IMG/VR virus record: IMGVR_UViG_3300035042_000066
Source of the DNA: a virus
DNA length: 64,000 bases
Strand: one strand, 5' to 3'
This document shows, piece by piece, positions 4,071 through 49,368 of the stretch (positions are counted from its first letter, which is position 1; the number at the start of each line of letters is the position of its first letter). Below the pieces are notes generated by a model. The model was not told the origin of the DNA. It did no database searches and worked only from the letters and a program-made list of their open reading frames with translations. The position numbers and the translations under genes were made by a program.

Positions 4071-4402
4071 TTGTTCCTCCCAAAATTTATCCAGTTTATG
4101 TTCATTACGTCAGGGCATACTTCTAGTAAATGCACTGTATTACCACTATTTTCAACAATATTACTTAATGCTCCCATAGAAAAACTATTTCTAATTCCAT
4201 ACGTTTCTTTATGGCATTTATATATAGACTTAGAATAACCATAAAAGTAATAATATTCATTATCTTCTTCTGCACTGAGGACACCAGAATTTAGTCTCCA
4301 TTTACTTCCCCAGAGATACCCACCACACCATGAAGCAAACACTCTATAATGTGGGTCAGTACCAGTAATTTTCAATAATACCCAATCATGAGGAGTATAC
4401 AT
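4067..4402 (-). CDS. conserved phage hypothetical protein
   Basis: YTPHDWVLLKI...YRVFASWCGGYLWGSKWRLNSG. Confidence 0.75.
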   Translation of the reverse strand: MYTPHDWVLLKITGTDPHYRVFASWCGGYLWGSKWRLNSGVLSAEEDNEYYYFYGYSKSIYKCHKETYGIRNSFSMGALSNIVENSGNTVHLLEVCPDVMNINWINFGRNK

Positions 4403-4485
4403 TATTTTTTCCTTATTTCTAGTGTTAATGTGTTAATGTGTTCATGTATTCTGATATTCACTATATAATATAATATGCTTTATCA

Positions 4486-5160
4486 TTAGACTAATTGTTT
4501 CTTTAATTCTTCGTATAATTTTTCTGATATTTCAATATCTTTACCATCTATAGTAATTATTTTCTTGTTAGATACAACTTCATATCCTGAAATTCTAGAA
4601 TCATTTAACTTTATTACTTGGTGTTCTGGAACAATTATCACTTCAAAAATATCACGTCTAACTACTACACAATTATAACCAGTTTTAAAGGTACAATTAG
4701 AACCTGTATCAAAGGTACAATCAGAACCTGTATCAAAAGTACAACAAGAACCTGTATCAAAAATACAATTAGAACCTGTATCAAAGGTACAATCAGAACC
4801 TGTATCAAAAGTACAACAAGAACCTGTATCAAAAATACAATTAGAACCTGTATCAAAGGTACAATCAGAACTAGTTTTAAAGGTACAATAAGAACCTGTA
4901 TCAAAAGTACAATAAGAACCTGTATCAAAAATACAATTAGAACCAGTTTTAAAAGTACAATTAGAATCTGTATCAAAGGTACAATCAGAACCAGTTTTAA
5001 AGGTACAATCAGAACCAGTTTTAAATGTTACAGTATTACACTCTGAAAAATCTAATACCAAACCTCTTTGTTCAGAACTAAAAGTTAAAGCAACTTCATC
5101 CCAAACATACAAATTAAAATCAATTGGTTTACCATTTTTTGTTACAGTGAAATTTTCCAT
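4486..5160 (-). CDS. octapeptide (FxTGSxCx) repeat protein, 15 repeats
   Basis: 24-nt coding tandem repeat; paralog of 5900..6514. Confidence 0.85.
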   Translation of the reverse strand: MENFTVTKNGKPIDFNLYVWDEVALTFSSEQRGLVLDFSECNTVTFKTGSDCTFKTGSDCTFDTDSNCTFKTGSNCIFDTGSYCTFDTGSYCTFKTSSDCTFDTGSNCIFDTGSCCTFDTGSDCTFDTGSNCIFDTGSCCTFDTGSDCTFDTGSNCTFKTGYNCVVVRRDIFEVIIVPEHQVIKLNDSRISGYEVVSNKKIITIDGKDIEISEKLYEELKKQLV

Positions 5161-5171
5161 CTCAATTCTCC

Positions 5172-5335
5172 TTAATTAATTGGTTTAATATGATCCCAAG
5201 ACAAAATATGAACTGCTTGTTTAGATTTTGAATCATATTCATCATCAAAACAATAATATTTACCTATTATGTTATCATAATGACTATAATGACGACAACA
5301 TCAATCACTACTTTCGTTATGTCTTACTTTTACTT
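5172..5335 (-). pseudogene. decayed ORF downstream of the MITE
   Basis: VKVRHNESSD*CCRHYSHY...SWDHIKPIN* with TGA at 5301-5303; no intact start. Confidence 0.35.
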
Positions 5336-5421
5336 AATATTGAATGTAGCCTGATTTCTATAAGCGATACCGTTTATACATGGTCATAAAATGAGCTTCA
5401 CTACATAGTAGGATAGGCTTG

Positions 5422-5617
5422 GTGAACTACCCACAGGCTTTAGACTGTGGGCTTCTTAGGTAATATTTGCTTTTACTAGCCAAATAAATTTACTAAGCTA
5501 TCCCCGAAGTTCCTTCGGTTAATATTCTAAAACCCTCTTCTTTTATATTTTTACTCTTCCATCCCATATTATACCTTTTCTACCCACAGTCTAAAGCCTG
5601 TGGGATTTCTTTTTTTT
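5422..5617 (-). mobile_element. non-autonomous IS200/IS605 derivative (MITE/PATE) of the element at 47281-48990
   Basis: Reverse complement matches 47281-47352 joined to 48866-48990 via TAAAAATA microhomology; preceded by TTTAA, ends in TCAC. Confidence 0.95.
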
Positions 5618-5625
5618 TTAAATAC

Positions 5626-5654
5626 AATATACACTGTTTAACTTAACTAGTCAA
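5626..5654 (-). promoter_or_regulatory. sigma70-type promoter firing into the MITE
   Basis: TTGACT-N17-TATATT; predicted +1 at about 5619. Confidence 0.7.
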
Positions 5655-5658
5655 CTTT

Positions 5659-5883
5659 TTATTTTACAAAATCACAATTACCATCAGATTGATAATCACT
5701 TAATCCAATAAAATCATTATTGTGGGTATTTTCTATCACTACACTACAATCTCTAGCAAACGAATAAACACATCCACAATTGTTACATTTTATAATTGAT
5801 TCATGGAATGAAATAGTATCTAATTGCGATATTATTTTAGTGTCATTTGTTCCACATTGTGGACACTTATCTTTACTAATCAT
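5659..5883 (-). CDS. small zinc-ribbon protein
   Basis: CPQC...CNNC. Confidence 0.6.
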   Translation of the reverse strand: MISKDKCPQCGTNDTKIISQLDTISFHESIIKCNNCGCVYSFARDCSVVIENTHNNDFIGLSDYQSDGNCDFVK

Positions 5884-5899
5884 GTTCCCTTTAATCCTT

Positions 5900-6514
5900 T
5901 CATAAAGTCAATTGTTTCTTTAGTTGCTCGTATGATTCTTCTGATATTTCGATGTCTTTACCATCTATGGTAATTATTTTGTTATTAGAGATAATTTCAT
6001 ATCCTGATACCCCACAACAATTCAATCGAATTTTCTGATTTTCTGGAACAATTATTACATCAAACACATCACGTCTAATAACTACACAATGAGAACCAGC
6101 ATTAAATGTGCAATCAAAACCAGTATTAAATATGCAATCAGAACCAGTATTAAATGTGCAATCAGAACCAGTATTAAATGCGCAATCAGAACCAGTATTA
6201 AATGTGCAATCAAGACCAGTATTAAATATGCAATCAAAACCAGTATTAAATATGCAATCAGAACCAGTGTTAAATGTGCAACCAAAACCAGTTTTAAATA
6301 TACAACGAGAACCAGTTTTAAATGTGCAATCAGAACCAGTGTTAAATATTACATCATCATAATCTGAAAAATCTAATACTAATCCTCCTTTATAAGAGCT
6401 AAAAGTTAAAGTAGATTCATCCCAATTGTACAGATCATCAGAATTAAGTTCTTTGCCGTTTTTTGTCACACTGAATTTTTTCATTTTAAATCTCCTTTTT
6501 AATTCACTGATCAT
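5900..6514 (-). CDS. octapeptide (FNTGSDCx) repeat protein, 11 repeats (probable start 6484)
   Basis: 24-nt coding repeat; shares N-terminus and KIITIDGKDIEISE C-terminus with 4486..5160. Confidence 0.85.
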   Translation of the reverse strand: MISELKRRFKMKKFSVTKNGKELNSDDLYNWDESTLTFSSYKGGLVLDFSDYDDVIFNTGSDCTFKTGSRCIFKTGFGCTFNTGSDCIFNTGFDCIFNTGLDCTFNTGSDCAFNTGSDCTFNTGSDCIFNTGFDCTFNAGSHCVVIRRDVFDVIIVPENQKIRLNCCGVSGYEIISNNKIITIDGKDIEISEESYEQLKKQLTL

Positions 6515-7031
6515 TTTCTTTTAATCCTTTCATAAAGTCAATTGTTTGTTGTACTTGTTCTTCTGTCAAACTGGTTTGAAATTTTTGTGATTCTGTTTCA
6601 TAGTCTACACATAGAACAACATTATGATGTTTAGGGTATTCTTTAATTTCATCAAAGAAGCAAACATTCATATTATCCTTACAAACATATCTACCATCAT
6701 ACTCAGCAATAAAGACTACTGGTTCCCATTCATGTTTAAATTTAGCTAATACTGTTTCACCTTTCTTAGGAATCCACACGTTAAACATATTTAACGCTTC
6801 TTGGATAGAAATAATATCAAAGCCATTTTTAACATAGAAATCAATACAATCCCAACTCAACGAAGGTATTGATGACAAATTAAAACATATGGGATATTCT
6901 ATAGGGTTAAACCCCCCATATATATACATAAAAGTTGATAGACTAGGCTCCCAACCTTCACTTTCACATATACAGCTAAACTTCTCTAGGTCTTCTTCAT
7001 TATCAATACGTACCGCAATCTTATTGATCAT
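6504..7031 (-). CDS. hypothetical protein
   Basis: 175-aa ORF with RBS. Confidence 0.7.
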   Translation of the reverse strand: MINKIAVRIDNEEDLEKFSCICESEGWEPSLSTFMYIYGGFNPIEYPICFNLSSIPSLSWDCIDFYVKNGFDIISIQEALNMFNVWIPKKGETVLAKFKHEWEPVVFIAEYDGRYVCKDNMNVCFFDEIKEYPKHHNVVLCVDYETESQKFQTSLTEEQVQQTIDFMKGLKENDQ

Positions 7032-32648: not shown

Positions 32649-33098
32649 TTAACGAGTAAATTTATATTTTTTACAAATAATATTATTAGAATTTAATAAT
32701 TCTATTCCACTAACGTCTCGATCATATTCTTCTAAATAATATACCTCTTTAATTCCGGTGGCTAATAATAATTTAGCGCACATACCACAAGGACTTAACG
32801 TTAAATAAACTTTACCTCCTTCAGGATTTATATTATTTTTCAATGCCTCTGCTAATAAATTTTGCTCGGCATGTAATTCATATTTAATAGAAAATTCTCG
32901 GTGTTTTTCATCAGTATATTCATTTTCTTTAAAATAGTCTTCGCAATGTATCATTCCCTTTGGTACGCCATTATAACCAGTAGATACAATTCTATCATTT
33001 TTTACTAAAACTGCTCCTACTTTTATTCTAGTACAAGTTGATCTATTTGCAAAATTAATTGCAGTTTCCATAAATATATCTGATAAACTTTTTCTCAT
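32649..33098 (-). CDS. cd: dCMP deaminase
   Basis: STC..KVGA, GYNG, HAEQN, SPCGMC. Confidence 0.9.
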   Translation of the reverse strand: MRKSLSDIFMETAINFANRSTCTRIKVGAVLVKNDRIVSTGYNGVPKGMIHCEDYFKENEYTDEKHREFSIKYELHAEQNLLAEALKNNINPEGGKVYLTLSPCGMCAKLLLATGIKEVYYLEEYDRDVSGIELLNSNNIICKKYKFTR

Positions 33099-33112
33099 CT
33101 TATAATCTCCAT

Positions 33113-33799
33113 TTAATTTAAATATTTTTGAATATATTTAAAATGATTTTCATAACAATGTAAAGAAGATGCTGTCCAAATCAAATTTCCTAATTCCAAT
33201 TCAGGATAATATTCTTTTAACTTATTTAATACCAAATCATGTACATATTTAGCCCACGCTACATCATTATTATAACCAAATACTACGTCATTACTTCGCA
33301 TCATATAATGAGAAATTAATTTATTATCTCTAATAAAAAATTGATTTGCGTATGTACAAACAAAATCTGACATACCTTCACTATTATATTCATAATGCAT
33401 TGAAGGTCTTTGATATATCATTGTTGCTCTTCTAGAATTTTTATTCTTTAGTAATTCATTTATGGCATTATTGAATTGATTATAATTTTGCTCTGAAAAT
33501 ATTAAATACCCATAATTTGAATTTATTTTACCTTCAGTACTTGATACCTCATTCCATATTTTTGGAGTAACTCCAGGTATATCTTTAACATATAAAGATT
33601 CAGATTTATACCATTCTAACTCTCTTTGAATATAATCATAATTAGGCTTTCTTATAATATAATCCTCAGTTACATTAAATGAATAACCTAGTAACTCAAT
33701 AAGTTTAGAGCCACTTTTATCTTCTATAAATTCTTTATTTTGAAATTTATTAATAAATTTTAATCTTATATCAGATACGTTATACATAATTTTCCCCAA
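33113..33799 (-). CDS. 42: dCMP hydroxymethylase-like enzyme (T4 gp42 family)
   Basis: YIQRELEWYKS, GMSDFVCT, MRSNDVVFGYNND match recalled T4 gp42, including the dCMP-specifying Asp. Confidence 0.85.
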   Translation of the reverse strand: MGKIMYNVSDIRLKFINKFQNKEFIEDKSGSKLIELLGYSFNVTEDYIIRKPNYDYIQRELEWYKSESLYVKDIPGVTPKIWNEVSSTEGKINSNYGYLIFSEQNYNQFNNAINELLKNKNSRRATMIYQRPSMHYEYNSEGMSDFVCTYANQFFIRDNKLISHYMMRSNDVVFGYNNDVAWAKYVHDLVLNKLKEYYPELELGNLIWTASSLHCYENHFKYIQKYLN

Positions 33800-34310
33800 A
33801 TAAAAAAGTATTCACTTCTCTTTGTACTTCGTTAATGCTTTTTCCTGTAATTTTAATTTCTTTTTTATTTTTTATTTGTACTAAGTTTAACATATTCCTA
33901 AAATATTGTAATTCTTTTTCTTTTTTATTTTTATTGATTGAAAAAGAATCTCCGTCATCCCGCTGAATAACATTTTGAATTTCATCAGTAAATAATACTA
34001 ATTTTACATCACTAAAATCAGATAATAGATTTAATACATAATCTCCGCTATAATTTCTATAAAGTGGACCATAAATGGCTTCACCCAAATGTGATCTATC
34101 CATTATAATATCAAAATCTTTATTTAATTCTTTTATTTTTGATATTAATTTAATATAATAATTTTTATTATCAGAAAAAGATAAAGATTTGTCTAAGGAA
34201 GAACAATGGATAATGATCGGATATTTTCCCATTTTTGATAATTCTTTTTGTAATAATTTTACCTGAGTACTTTTACCCGAATTATCTATTCCTTCTATAA
34301 TATAAACCAT
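33780..34310 (-). CDS. thymidylate-kinase-like dNMP kinase
   Basis: IEGIDNSGKST, MDRSHLGEAIYG. Confidence 0.85.
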   Translation of the reverse strand: MVYIIEGIDNSGKSTQVKLLQKELSKMGKYPIIIHCSSLDKSLSFSDNKNYYIKLISKIKELNKDFDIIMDRSHLGEAIYGPLYRNYSGDYVLNLLSDFSDVKLVLFTDEIQNVIQRDDGDSFSINKNKKEKELQYFRNMLNLVQIKNKKEIKITGKSINEVQREVNTFLFGENYV

Positions 34311-46700: not shown

Positions 46701-47114
46701 ATGGAGGTTAAAATGGAAATAAAGAAATTTGAAGATTTATTTGAAGAAATTGAAAAAGACCTTGAAATAAATTCTGTTAATTTACAAGAGAAATTATTTA
46801 AAGTACCAAATTTACATACTAAATATTTAAGGATGTTCTATAATTATCAGAAAATATATCTAAAGAAGAAAAAACAACTCAACGAATTATACACTGAGAT
46901 ATATGATAAATATAAGAATGGAGATGAAATATTAGATAAAAAGGAAATACAGTTCTATGTTTTATCTGATAAAGAATATTCTGATTTAAAGTATAAGGTT
47001 AATCAATTAGAAAATATGATAGATATATTAGAGAAAACAGTAAAACGAGTTAATAATCTATCTTTTGACTTGAAGCATATTATAGAGTGGGTTAAATTTC
47101 AAGAAGGTGCGTAA
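46701..47114 (+). CDS. uvsY: recombination mediator UvsY
   Basis: DLEIN..NL..VPNLHTKYL...IIEWVKFQEG; near uvsW. Confidence 0.8.
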   Translation: MEVKMEIKKFEDLFEEIEKDLEINSVNLQEKLFKVPNLHTKYLRMFYNYQKIYLKKKKQLNELYTEIYDKYKNGDEILDKKEIQFYVLSDKEYSDLKYKVNQLENMIDILEKTVKRVNNLSFDLKHIIEWVKFQEGA

Positions 47115-47330
47115 TGTTATCATTTAAAGAATTAACTGAGCTAAATGAAATTAAAGATATAACTAGTAAGAATATTTGGATTAGTCTTCAAGAAGGTTTC
47201 AATATATCTGAAACAAAATTTGGTATTAATTTTCCTAAATTTGATAATTATAGAATCAAAAATGGAAGGACTTATTTTAAAAAAGAAAGAAATCCCACAG
47301 GCTTTAGACTGTGGGTAGAAAAGGTATAAT

Positions 47331-47732
47331 ATGGGATGGAAGAGTAAAAATAGACATAAGTATTTGTTGCAATGTCATTTGATATTTGTGTGTAAATATA
47401 GGAAGAAGTTTTTCTTAAATTCTACAATATTTGAAAAAGTAAAACAATTATCTTTTGAAATATGTAATAAACATAAAGGTAATATTGAAGAAATGGAAAC
47501 TGATAAAGACCATATTCATTATATGATTGAATATGAACCTACAATTTCTATTAGTAAAATTGTAAATCTAATGAAATCATATATAACTTTTCATATTTGG
47601 AATACAGAATCTAATTATTTGAAAAATTATCTATGGAAGGAAAAAACATTTTTTACAGATGGGTATTTTGTGTGTAGTATAGGGAATGTATCAAAAGAAC
47701 AATTACAAAAATATATAGAAAATCAAGGATAA
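47331..47732 (+). CDS. tnpA: HUH Y1 transposase
   Basis: HLIFVCKYRK, DHIH, GYFVCSIG, YIENQ. Confidence 0.95.
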   Translation: MGWKSKNRHKYLLQCHLIFVCKYRKKFFLNSTIFEKVKQLSFEICNKHKGNIEEMETDKDHIHYMIEYEPTISISKIVNLMKSYITFHIWNTESNYLKNYLWKEKTFFTDGYFVCSIGNVSKEQLQKYIENQG

Positions 47733-47754
47733 TTAATTTGACAAAATTAATATT

Positions 47755-48918
47755 ATGTGGTATAATACAATAGAAAGTGAGGTGATAGTAATGAAAATAA
47801 ACAAGGCTTATAAATTTAGACTTTATCCTAATAAAAAGCAGGAAGAGTTAATTAACAAAACTTTTGGAAGTGTTAGATTTATTTATAATAAAATGTTATC
47901 GGATAAGATAGATTATTATAAGTTGCATAAACAAAAATTAAATAACACTCCTGCTCAATATAAGAAAGAGTTTGGATGGTTGAAAGAAGTTGATAGTTTA
48001 GCACTATCAAACGCACAATTAAACTTACAGACTGCTTATAATAATTTTTTCAGAGATAAAAAAGCGGGATTTCCTAAATTCAAAAGTAAGAAAAAAGATA
48101 AAAATAGTTATACAACAAATAATCAAAAAGGAAGCATATCTTTATCTGAAAATAATAAAAAAATAAAACTTCCAAAGTTAGGATTAGTAAAAATTAAATG
48201 TCATAGAACAATTAAAGATAATGAAATTATTAAGTCTTGTACAATTTCACTATCACCTTCTGGAAAGTATTATATAAGTATATTGGTTGAATATGAAAAA
48301 GAAATAATCAAAGTAAAACCTAAAATAGAAAATGCAGTTGGATTAGATTTTTCTATGAAGGATATGTTAGTAGATAATAATGGTACGACAGCCAAATATC
48401 AATATTTCTATTATAAATATCAAGAAAAATTAGTCAAAGAACAAAAGAAATTATCAAGAAAGAAAAAAGGAAGTAAAAATAGAAATAAACAAAGACTGAA
48501 AGTTGCAAAAATTCATGAAAAAATAGTAAATTGCAGAAAAGATTTTCAACATAAATTATCAAGAGAATATGTAAATAATTTTGATGTAGTGTGTGTTGAA
48601 GATATTAATATGAAAAATATGTCAAGAATGTTAAATTTTTCTAAGAAAACTATGGACAATTCTTTTGGTTCATTCAGAGATATGCTCAAATATAAGTTAG
48701 AATTAGAAGGAAAATATTTTATAAAAATAGATAAGTGGTTTCCTAGTTCTAAGACTTGTAATGAGTGTGGGGTTATAAATTCTAAACTAAAATTAGGAGA
48801 ATTTGAGTGGATTTGTGATTCTTGTGGAAGTGTTATAAATAGAGACGTAAACGCAGCTAAAAATATAAAAGAAGAGGGTTTTAGAATATTAACCGAAGGA
48901 ACTTCGGGGATAGCTTAG
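47755..48918 (+). CDS. tnpB: RNA-guided nuclease TnpB
   Basis: KAYKFRLYP; RuvC GLD / VED / RDVNAA; Zn finger CNEC..CDSC. Confidence 0.95.
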   Translation: MWYNTIESEVIVMKINKAYKFRLYPNKKQEELINKTFGSVRFIYNKMLSDKIDYYKLHKQKLNNTPAQYKKEFGWLKEVDSLALSNAQLNLQTAYNNFFRDKKAGFPKFKSKKKDKNSYTTNNQKGSISLSENNKKIKLPKLGLVKIKCHRTIKDNEIIKSCTISLSPSGKYYISILVEYEKEIIKVKPKIENAVGLDFSMKDMLVDNNGTTAKYQYFYYKYQEKLVKEQKKLSRKKKGSKNRNKQRLKVAKIHEKIVNCRKDFQHKLSREYVNNFDVVCVEDINMKNMSRMLNFSKKTMDNSFGSFRDMLKYKLELEGKYFIKIDKWFPSSKTCNECGVINSKLKLGEFEWICDSCGSVINRDVNAAKNIKEEGFRILTEGTSGIA

Positions 48919-49368
48919 TAAATTTATTTGGCTAGTAAAAAGCAAATATTACCTAAGAAGCCCACAGGCTTTAGACTGTGGGTAGTTCACTTATAAATCA
49001 AGAGTAATTGAAGTAAATATAAATAAGATACCAGGTACTAATATAGCTTATTTTAAATTTGCGTCTGGTCCAAAAGTAGATAATAAAAGAGATTTAGATC
49101 CTATTACTGGTAACTTAAAACTACAAGATTCATCTGCTCTTAGTATATATAATAGAGTAATATATGTTTTGTTTGAATATCTTGAAAATAATAAAGAAAT
49201 AAATGAAGTTCAATTTCAAGCAGCTGATAAAGATTTACAAAAGATATATTCAGTAATGGTTAAAAATTCTAAATTTTTGAAAACTTTTGAAAGATATGGA
49301 TGGAAATATATGGGGTTTGAAAACGATAGTTATAAATTCGTATATGATTCAGAGGAATAAATGTTTAT

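Follow-up and report, generated by a model that had tools for sequence, protein, structure and literature searches.

A protein-less IS605-family mini-element in a tailed phage, with a complete omega-RNA scaffold and a plausible role as a guide locus acting in trans

Can an insertion-sequence derivative that has lost its genes still supply a guide to a nuclease encoded elsewhere in the same genome? The question is raised by a 196-bp element in a viral contig of 69.3 kb, estimated to be 39% complete and about 27% G+C, whose genes for portal, head scaffold and major head proteins follow a T4-like order. We analyzed a stretch of 64,000 nucleotides of this DNA, which we refer to as the window. A first-pass annotation had described the element as the fused ends of a TnpB-encoding insertion sequence (IS), situated at the transcription start of a promoter, and had suggested that it might be a stand-alone guide-RNA cassette. 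Judged from its sequence, a trans-acting guide-RNA function is plausible, and we put at roughly 0.6 the probability that the mini-element gives a second omega RNA, which loads the TnpB of the parent IS, 42 kb away, and targets the empty site, i.e. the same locus without the insertion.

Origin of the mini-element

Alignment bears out the composition that the annotation had proposed. The element, on the minus strand, consists of parent nucleotides 47281–47352 (72 nt, the left end) followed by 48866–48990 (the last 125 nt of the IS), and the two parts meet at an 8-nt microhomology, TAAAAATA, which can be located in the parent and in the mini-element alike (Table 1). An internal deletion of 1,513 bp, between two 8-nt repeats of this sequence, would have removed tnpA and nearly all of tnpB. 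Both elements are preceded by TTTAA and both terminate in TCAC, as had been noted; the ends of the mini-element are identical to those of the parent, and it carries both 22-nt subterminal hairpins. No ORF of at least 30 aa overlaps 5422–5617 on either strand, the orientation is that of the surrounding genes, and the 69.3-kb record contains one mini-element, one parent IS, and no others. The mini-element derives by deletion from the IS605-family element of this phage; it encodes no protein, is non-autonomous, and is of the PATE/MITE type. Either the Y1 transposase TnpA, acting in trans, would have set it 3' of TTTAA, or a full copy would have landed there and shrunk later. Neither the locus nor the parent IS had a megablast match among 50,697 phage records, and viral contigs scanned for exact patterns from the right flank, from the stem 1 region and across the deletion junction gave no hits. 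Exact-pattern scans also gave no second copy of the mini-element, and the locus elsewhere only in a related phage contig, G001.

Table 1. Features of the mini-element, its flanks and the parent IS (positions in the window)
Feature	Position	Strand	Remarks
Mini-element, protein-less (PATE/MITE type)	5422..5617	-	Derived from IS 47281-48990
Left-end part, 72 nt	5546..5617	-	With TnpA hairpin 5583-5604 and TAAAAATA at 5546-5553
TAAAAATA copies	47345-47352 and 48858-48865; 5546-5553		Parent; mini-element
Omega-RNA scaffold, complete, 99 nt	5422..5520	-	Match to model R1, positions 1-111/111
Stem 1	5504-5518	-	Loop 5509-5512 forms pseudoknot with 5424-5427
Right-end hairpin (stem 4), inverted loop	5430..5451	-	UUUA to UAAA; G.A mismatch to U.C
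Predicted guide, flank directly 3' of right end	5402..5421	-	By position; identical in X4 empty allele
TTTAA target site, presumed TAM	5618..5622	-	Also before parent (47276-47280) and G001 mini-element
Sigma-70-type promoter TTGACT-N17-TATATT	5626..5654	-	Consensus scan 10/12; predicted start a few bases from TTTAA and element start
Second promoter-like site TTTAGA-N16-TATAAT, inside left end	5568..5595	-	10/12; candidate only
Parent IS605-type element	47281..48990	+	Autonomous; scaffold 48891-48990, R1 44.9 bits
tnpA	47331-47732	+	Pfam Y1_Tnp, E 2.5e-32
tnpB promoter TTGACA-N17-TATAAT with upstream TG	47738-47766	+	12/12 consensus
tnpB	47791-48918	+	Pfam OrfB_IS605, HTH_OrfB_IS605, Cas12f1-like_TNB

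Three kinds of change separate the mini-element from its parent: a single G>A in the A-tract of the left end, a run of five A's that is short of one A, and four coordinated changes that, taken together, turn the right-end hairpin of 22 nt into its exact reverse complement. The last of these is the inverted hairpin loop that the annotation had pointed out. The window contains four copies of this 22-mer, where chance would give zero, and the copy at 5430–5451 reads on the plus strand although the mini-element lies on the minus strand. The stem survives inversion because it is palindromic; only the loop and one mismatch are altered. As with small inversions at hairpins in general, the change would most readily be accounted for by a template switch that flipped the hairpin loop. 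The inversion probably changes the right end as presented to TnpA, and it may impair recognition there and so immobilize the mini-element. As a natural variant, it could help to show whether TnpA reads the hairpin loop, and whether long-range pairing between the ends spoils formation of the guide RNA.

The parent IS carries what the mini-element lacks. Its Y1 transposase gene, tnpA, is present in the same genome and is predicted to be able to act in trans. The natural protein of solved structure closest to its TnpB is that of ISDra2, with which residues 4–364 align (E 1e-68), and the phage TnpB looks active because its RuvC triad is intact, the D, E and D aligning to D191, E278 and D361 of ISDra2. 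The parent IS itself splits an ORF (47114–47329 and 48991 onward) that resumes in frame past 48990, and precise excision would therefore restore that ORF. Elsewhere in the window (32649–34310, minus strand), genes for a dCMP deaminase, a thymidylate-synthase-fold enzyme of 228 aa and a dNMP-kinase-like protein lie side by side, an association from which we conclude that the cytosines of this phage may be modified. If the middle gene encodes a dCMP hydroxymethylase, then the phage DNA would be modified, and this would bear on whether TnpB cuts it.

Scaffold, promoters and predicted folding

Does the retained right end contain a whole scaffold? We aligned 33 right ends from viral contigs and Bacillota genomes, each belonging to a homologue of TnpB; the proteins are ~40–62% identical. 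RNAalifold recovered stem 1, stem 2 and the inner part of stem 3, with many compensatory changes, and no conserved pairing upstream of stem 1. Reading of the alignment disclosed a pseudoknot in addition: right-end nucleotides -6 to -3 change in concert with the stem 1 loop, and this interaction on its own is 93% paired, with two positions that change on both sides. Over stems 1–3 and the pseudoknot, 92.3% of cells are paired, against 32–48% in slid controls, and a compensatory change occurs in 17 of the 20 pairs, the pseudoknot counted in. The order of the scaffold is stem 1, with its pseudoknot, stem 2, stem 3 and stem 4, the last being the right-end hairpin.

A covariance model built on 27 right-end sequences, none of them from the window or from G001, was then compared with the phage. 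This model, R1, matches at full length (positions 1–111 of 111) the mini-element (50 bits, E 9e-11), the right end of the parent (44.9 bits, E 1.8e-9) and a different mini-element in G001 (48.7 bits, E 1.9e-10), and it finds no further scaffold copies in the phage or in G001. The annotation had recommended just such a comparison for the retained 125 nt. Among 88 homologue loci, nearly all R1 matches fall directly after the TnpB match of their own locus; the exceptions are a mini-element in locus L009 and a lower-scoring minus-strand match in locus L045. Rfam, searched at gathering thresholds, yielded only three tRNAs and, at permissive thresholds, only the sub-threshold family Ref70 (RF02841); it has no model for the TnpB clade of the parent IS.

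In the parent, the scaffold begins at 48891, which is position -100, and all stems and the pseudoknot lie within the last 100 nt. Since the mini-element retains 125 nt and the scaffold needs 100, the whole scaffold has been kept, and nothing upstream of 48858 is needed. This is one of the points on which the annotation had staked its proposal, and R1, the covariation and the data for ISDra2 agree on it (PMC10097598). The ISDra2 omega RNA functions with a scaffold of 116 nt, its 5' region from -231 to -117 and its stem 3b both being dispensable; pairing joins its nucleotides -5 to -3 to the region of stem 1, and in its stem 4 the UUUA loop is disordered (PMC10097598). Within the scaffold, the mini-element is identical to its parent apart from one base, missing from the apical loop of stem 3, and the inversion of stem 4, which leaves the 7-bp stem in place. 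By analogy with ISDra2, neither the deletion nor the inverted loop should matter to TnpB.

A scaffold must also be transcribed, and the annotation had placed a TTGACT-N17-TATATT promoter at the start of the element. RNA runs were searched for this stretch, and none contained it. The promoter sequence is there, with 10 of 12 consensus positions, and a zinc-ribbon gene of 74 aa stops immediately ahead of it. The -10 hexamer ends 8 nt ahead of the first base of the mini-element. Matches of this kind are common in a genome of 27% G+C: promoter-like sites of at least 10/12 number 76 in the 64 kb. Even so, no more than 7 of the 781 TTTAA sites in the window have one that ends 3–15 nt upstream. In G001, both hexamers and their spacing are kept after the same gene, and the sequence of the spacer has diverged; on this comparison, the promoter is probably real. 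Because G001 has the same promoter and no mini-element at this site, the promoter is older than the insertion. The second promoter-like site, inside the left end, would start RNA ~45 nt ahead of stem 1, without the left-end hairpin. The parent has the same site at 47303–47330, where it was considered as a promoter for tnpA and ruled out because its -10 abuts the tnpA start codon.

RNA from the internal site is predicted to adopt the native scaffold fold. The inversion, however, has turned the left-end and right-end hairpins into perfect 22-nt complements, an inverted repeat, and for the transcript from the external promoter the predicted minimum is a long duplex between left end and right end (-66.3 kcal/mol) in which stem 4 is destroyed. 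The best fold of this transcript that keeps the local hairpins and the scaffold comes to -51.3 kcal/mol, ~15 kcal/mol worse, whereas with the parental hairpin in the same transcript the native fold is the predicted minimum, at -52.8 kcal/mol. This predicted misfolding of the paired ends is, for us, the main reason to doubt a guide-RNA function.

Might the mini-element, then, be a functionless copy, decaying in a non-coding leader where it is tolerated, with an RNA that, if made from the upstream promoter, is misfolded and of no use as a guide? The ~15 kcal/mol by which the end duplex is predicted to be favored would suit such a remnant, as would the 22-bp RNA duplex itself, a plausible substrate for RNase III, and the inverted loop, which may have disabled the element for TnpA. 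Nearness to a promoter would mark no more than the kind of place in which a dense phage genome tolerates insertions, for intergenic space is scarce and promoter-like sites abound in the early parts of such phage genomes. Against decay stands the scaffold, so nearly the parent's own, with its R1 score above that of the parent and its match full-length. Two other mini-elements of the clade, described below, keep the scaffold behind a promoter as well, and the internal site would yield RNA that folds natively. Local hairpins, moreover, fold first in the course of transcription, and TnpB processes the 5' side of its own RNA (PMC10097598); co-transcriptional folding and 5' processing together may rescue the long transcript. 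On balance, an inert remnant seems to us somewhat unlikely, and we prefer to regard the mini-element as a candidate source of guide RNA.

Empty sites, relatives and possible function

If the mini-element directs TnpB to unoccupied sites, do unoccupied sites exist? Logan assembled contigs from four oil-field metagenome runs, X1–X4, were mapped on 4400–6600. A 187-nt contig from X4 covers 5324–5421 and 5618–5706, with 0 mismatches over 98 and 89 nt, and joins 5421 to 5618. Exactly 196 bases are skipped, and the boundaries of the element are therefore exact and independently fixed. The contig reads TTTAA/CAAGCC, the perfect empty allele that the annotation had proposed looking for, and it has the identical TTGACT-N17-TATATT promoter. 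An allele without the mini-element thus exists in nature; the insertion is scarless, 3' of TTTAA, without target duplication, and the mini-element probably is, or recently was, mobile. Over the 98 nt 3' of TTTAA the empty allele is identical to the phage, so that TAM and guide match perfectly. By its sequence, this allele could equally be the ancestral state or a product of excision.

Contigs from X1 and X3 span the right-flank junction and the inverted loop with zero differences. One from X2 spans the junction with four differences, none of them listed at the junction or the hairpin; these probably lie near the start of the contig, in a repeat-rich gene. An X2 contig with the loop un-inverted was entertained and dropped as unsupported, no difference being listed at 5437–5444. 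The locus is flanked by paralogous genes on the minus strand, 4486–5160 (224 aa) and 5900–6514 (204 aa), each composed of ~15 tandem 8-residue units of the type TGSxCxFx, for which no Pfam or PHROG family scored above threshold. Metagenome contigs break within these repeat genes. G001 is without both paralogues and has a different gene, of 142 aa, in their place.

G001 is a contig of 88.9 kb, and the protein of 175 aa encoded next to the locus is 60% identical between the two phages. At the site itself, G001, the one distant relative found, has no mini-element and CCCAA in place of TTTAA, and it would therefore not be a target. Its leader is the same as that of the window, and 19 of the 20 guide positions are identical. 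The leader (5340–5421, minus strand), predicted guide included, is about as conserved with respect to G001 (L111:4800–4880) as is the neighboring coding sequence, and in G001 it contains a 10-nt insertion that creates a perfect small hairpin. A 25-mer from the conserved leader matched only G001 in the viral and metagenome collections.

Elsewhere, G001 has a mini-element of its own: an internally deleted IS of the same clade, 368 bp long (L114:1339–1706, minus strand), with TTTAA, the left-end hairpin and the full scaffold. It encodes a 72-aa in-frame fusion of N- and C-terminal residues of TnpB, lies 32 nt downstream of a perfect TTGACA-N17-TATAAT, and directly adjoins the start of the next gene, at its ribosome-binding site and ATG; inspected by eye, that gene resembles one for an RNA ligase. 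The 88.9 kb of G001 yielded no full tnpB. Another stand-alone mini-element, L009:2771–2925, occurs in an unrelated viral contig, where its left end provides a 12/12 sigma-70 promoter ~25 nt ahead of stem 1; it lies in tandem with, and just upstream of, a tnpB-only IS that has a similar left end and a different right-end hairpin. From these two cases we conclude that mini-elements combining promoter and scaffold recur in this TnpB clade.

A homing and retention mechanism has already been demonstrated for IS200/IS605 elements, and the one we propose here is the standard one for such elements. The transcript from the conserved sigma-70-type promoter would begin at the insertion site of the mini-element, and the flank 3' of the right end would serve as guide. 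This second omega RNA, once processed, would load TnpB, itself made from its own perfect sigma-70 promoter; the complex would cut genomes with the empty TTTAA/CAAGCC site, and recombination with a filled copy would then restore the mini-element or spread it. Transcription, RNA processing, TnpB loading and cleavage are the steps that we infer. A bolder version has the guide gene, with its early-type promoter, act together with TnpB as an RNA-guided marker-exclusion (homing) drive that converts the empty allele of co-infecting relatives, the inversion having frozen the mini-element against excision by TnpA. We think this unlikely; were it true, we would be looking at a first step from a mobile mini-element to a fixed, domesticated guide-RNA gene.

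The position of the mini-element, between a conserved promoter and a conserved leader, allows for an effect in cis, instead. With the insertion, the 5' leader of the downstream transcript would be longer by 196 structured nucleotides; on the plus strand, the left-end hairpin (5583–5604) followed by its T-run could act as an antisense terminator: 5583–5622 scores as terminator-like, one of 3 such sites against 0.2 expected, and the G>A change lengthens the T-run, which is now uninterrupted. No plus-strand gene needs termination there, however, and the left end of the parent has the same hairpin and T-run in antisense (47294–47315, minus strand), so that the structure is a by-product of left-end sequence; nor is the insertion required, since an allele without it exists. 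We rate a cis-regulatory role as quite improbable, and return to the mini-element as a guide locus.

Comparison with known systems

The novelty implied by the annotation was overstated: going by the summary in PMC10691335, and by PMC10055086, trans-acting stand-alone omega RNAs have already been published, as have PATEs with an encoded omega RNA. As a class, gene-less IS200/IS605 elements with an omega RNA are not new, and the mini-element adds nothing to it. What it offers is a compact natural test case, with one nuclease gene, two guide loci, a presumed TTTAA TAM, a natural empty allele as a perfect target, and a relative whose site lacks the TAM. Tailed phages with a T4-like head module recombine efficiently, and homing might therefore be measurable in crosses.

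With Rfam family RF02841 (Ref70, Enterococcus sRNA 70), the mini-element shares stem 1 and a GAUAGC-type linker at the start of the consensus. RF02841 aligns at full length to the mini-element, to the right end of the parent (48887–48999) and to that of an Enterococcus pallens TnpB element (L057:3638–3764). The scores, 24.6–29.9 bits (24.6 for the mini-element, 26 for the parent), are far below the gathering score of 115, and the mini-element is therefore not a member of Ref70. In Rfam, Ref70 is presented as an sRNA rather than an omega RNA; the alignments suggest that it is probably an unrecognized omega RNA of a related Enterococcus TnpB element.

The likeness to ISDra2 TnpB (PDB 8H1J, 8BF8) extends to protein and RNA. 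The RuvC D-E-D residues are conserved and the proteins align over the residues given above, with moderate similarity, and the RNA has the same pseudoknot between the stem 1 loop and the nucleotides ahead of the guide, the same stems 2 and 3, and a terminal stem with, in the parental form, a UUUA loop. The scaffold of our element is shorter (~100 nt versus 116), its TAM is inferred to be TTTAA rather than TTGAT, and the parent IS also carries tnpA.

A 2021 study, as summarized in PMC10691335, demonstrated that omega RNAs standing alone can act in trans. So far as that summary describes them, they resemble the mini-element in being mobilized guide-RNA loci without an effector gene, in a genome that contains an effector-bearing locus as well; the mini-element differs in that its function is a predicted one and its cognate TnpB lies 42 kb away in the same phage genome.

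PATEs, or palindrome-associated transposable elements, are protein-less IS200/IS605 derivatives of the same type. They often encode omega RNAs, upon which TnpB of other IS elements acts in trans (Meers et al. 2023, PMC10055086), and those of Geobacillus stearothermophilus are said to encode omega RNAs that are used in this way (PMC10055086). Like them, the mini-element has IS200/IS605 left- and right-end hairpins, no gene, and an autonomous partner in the genome, and it keeps the right-end omega-RNA scaffold and a scarless insertion beside the target motif of the family. Unlike them, it resides as a single copy in a tailed phage, whose head genes are in T4-like order, and not in a bacterial chromosome; it sits at the predicted transcript start of a conserved promoter; and its inverted loop has given it perfect 22-nt terminal inverted repeats.
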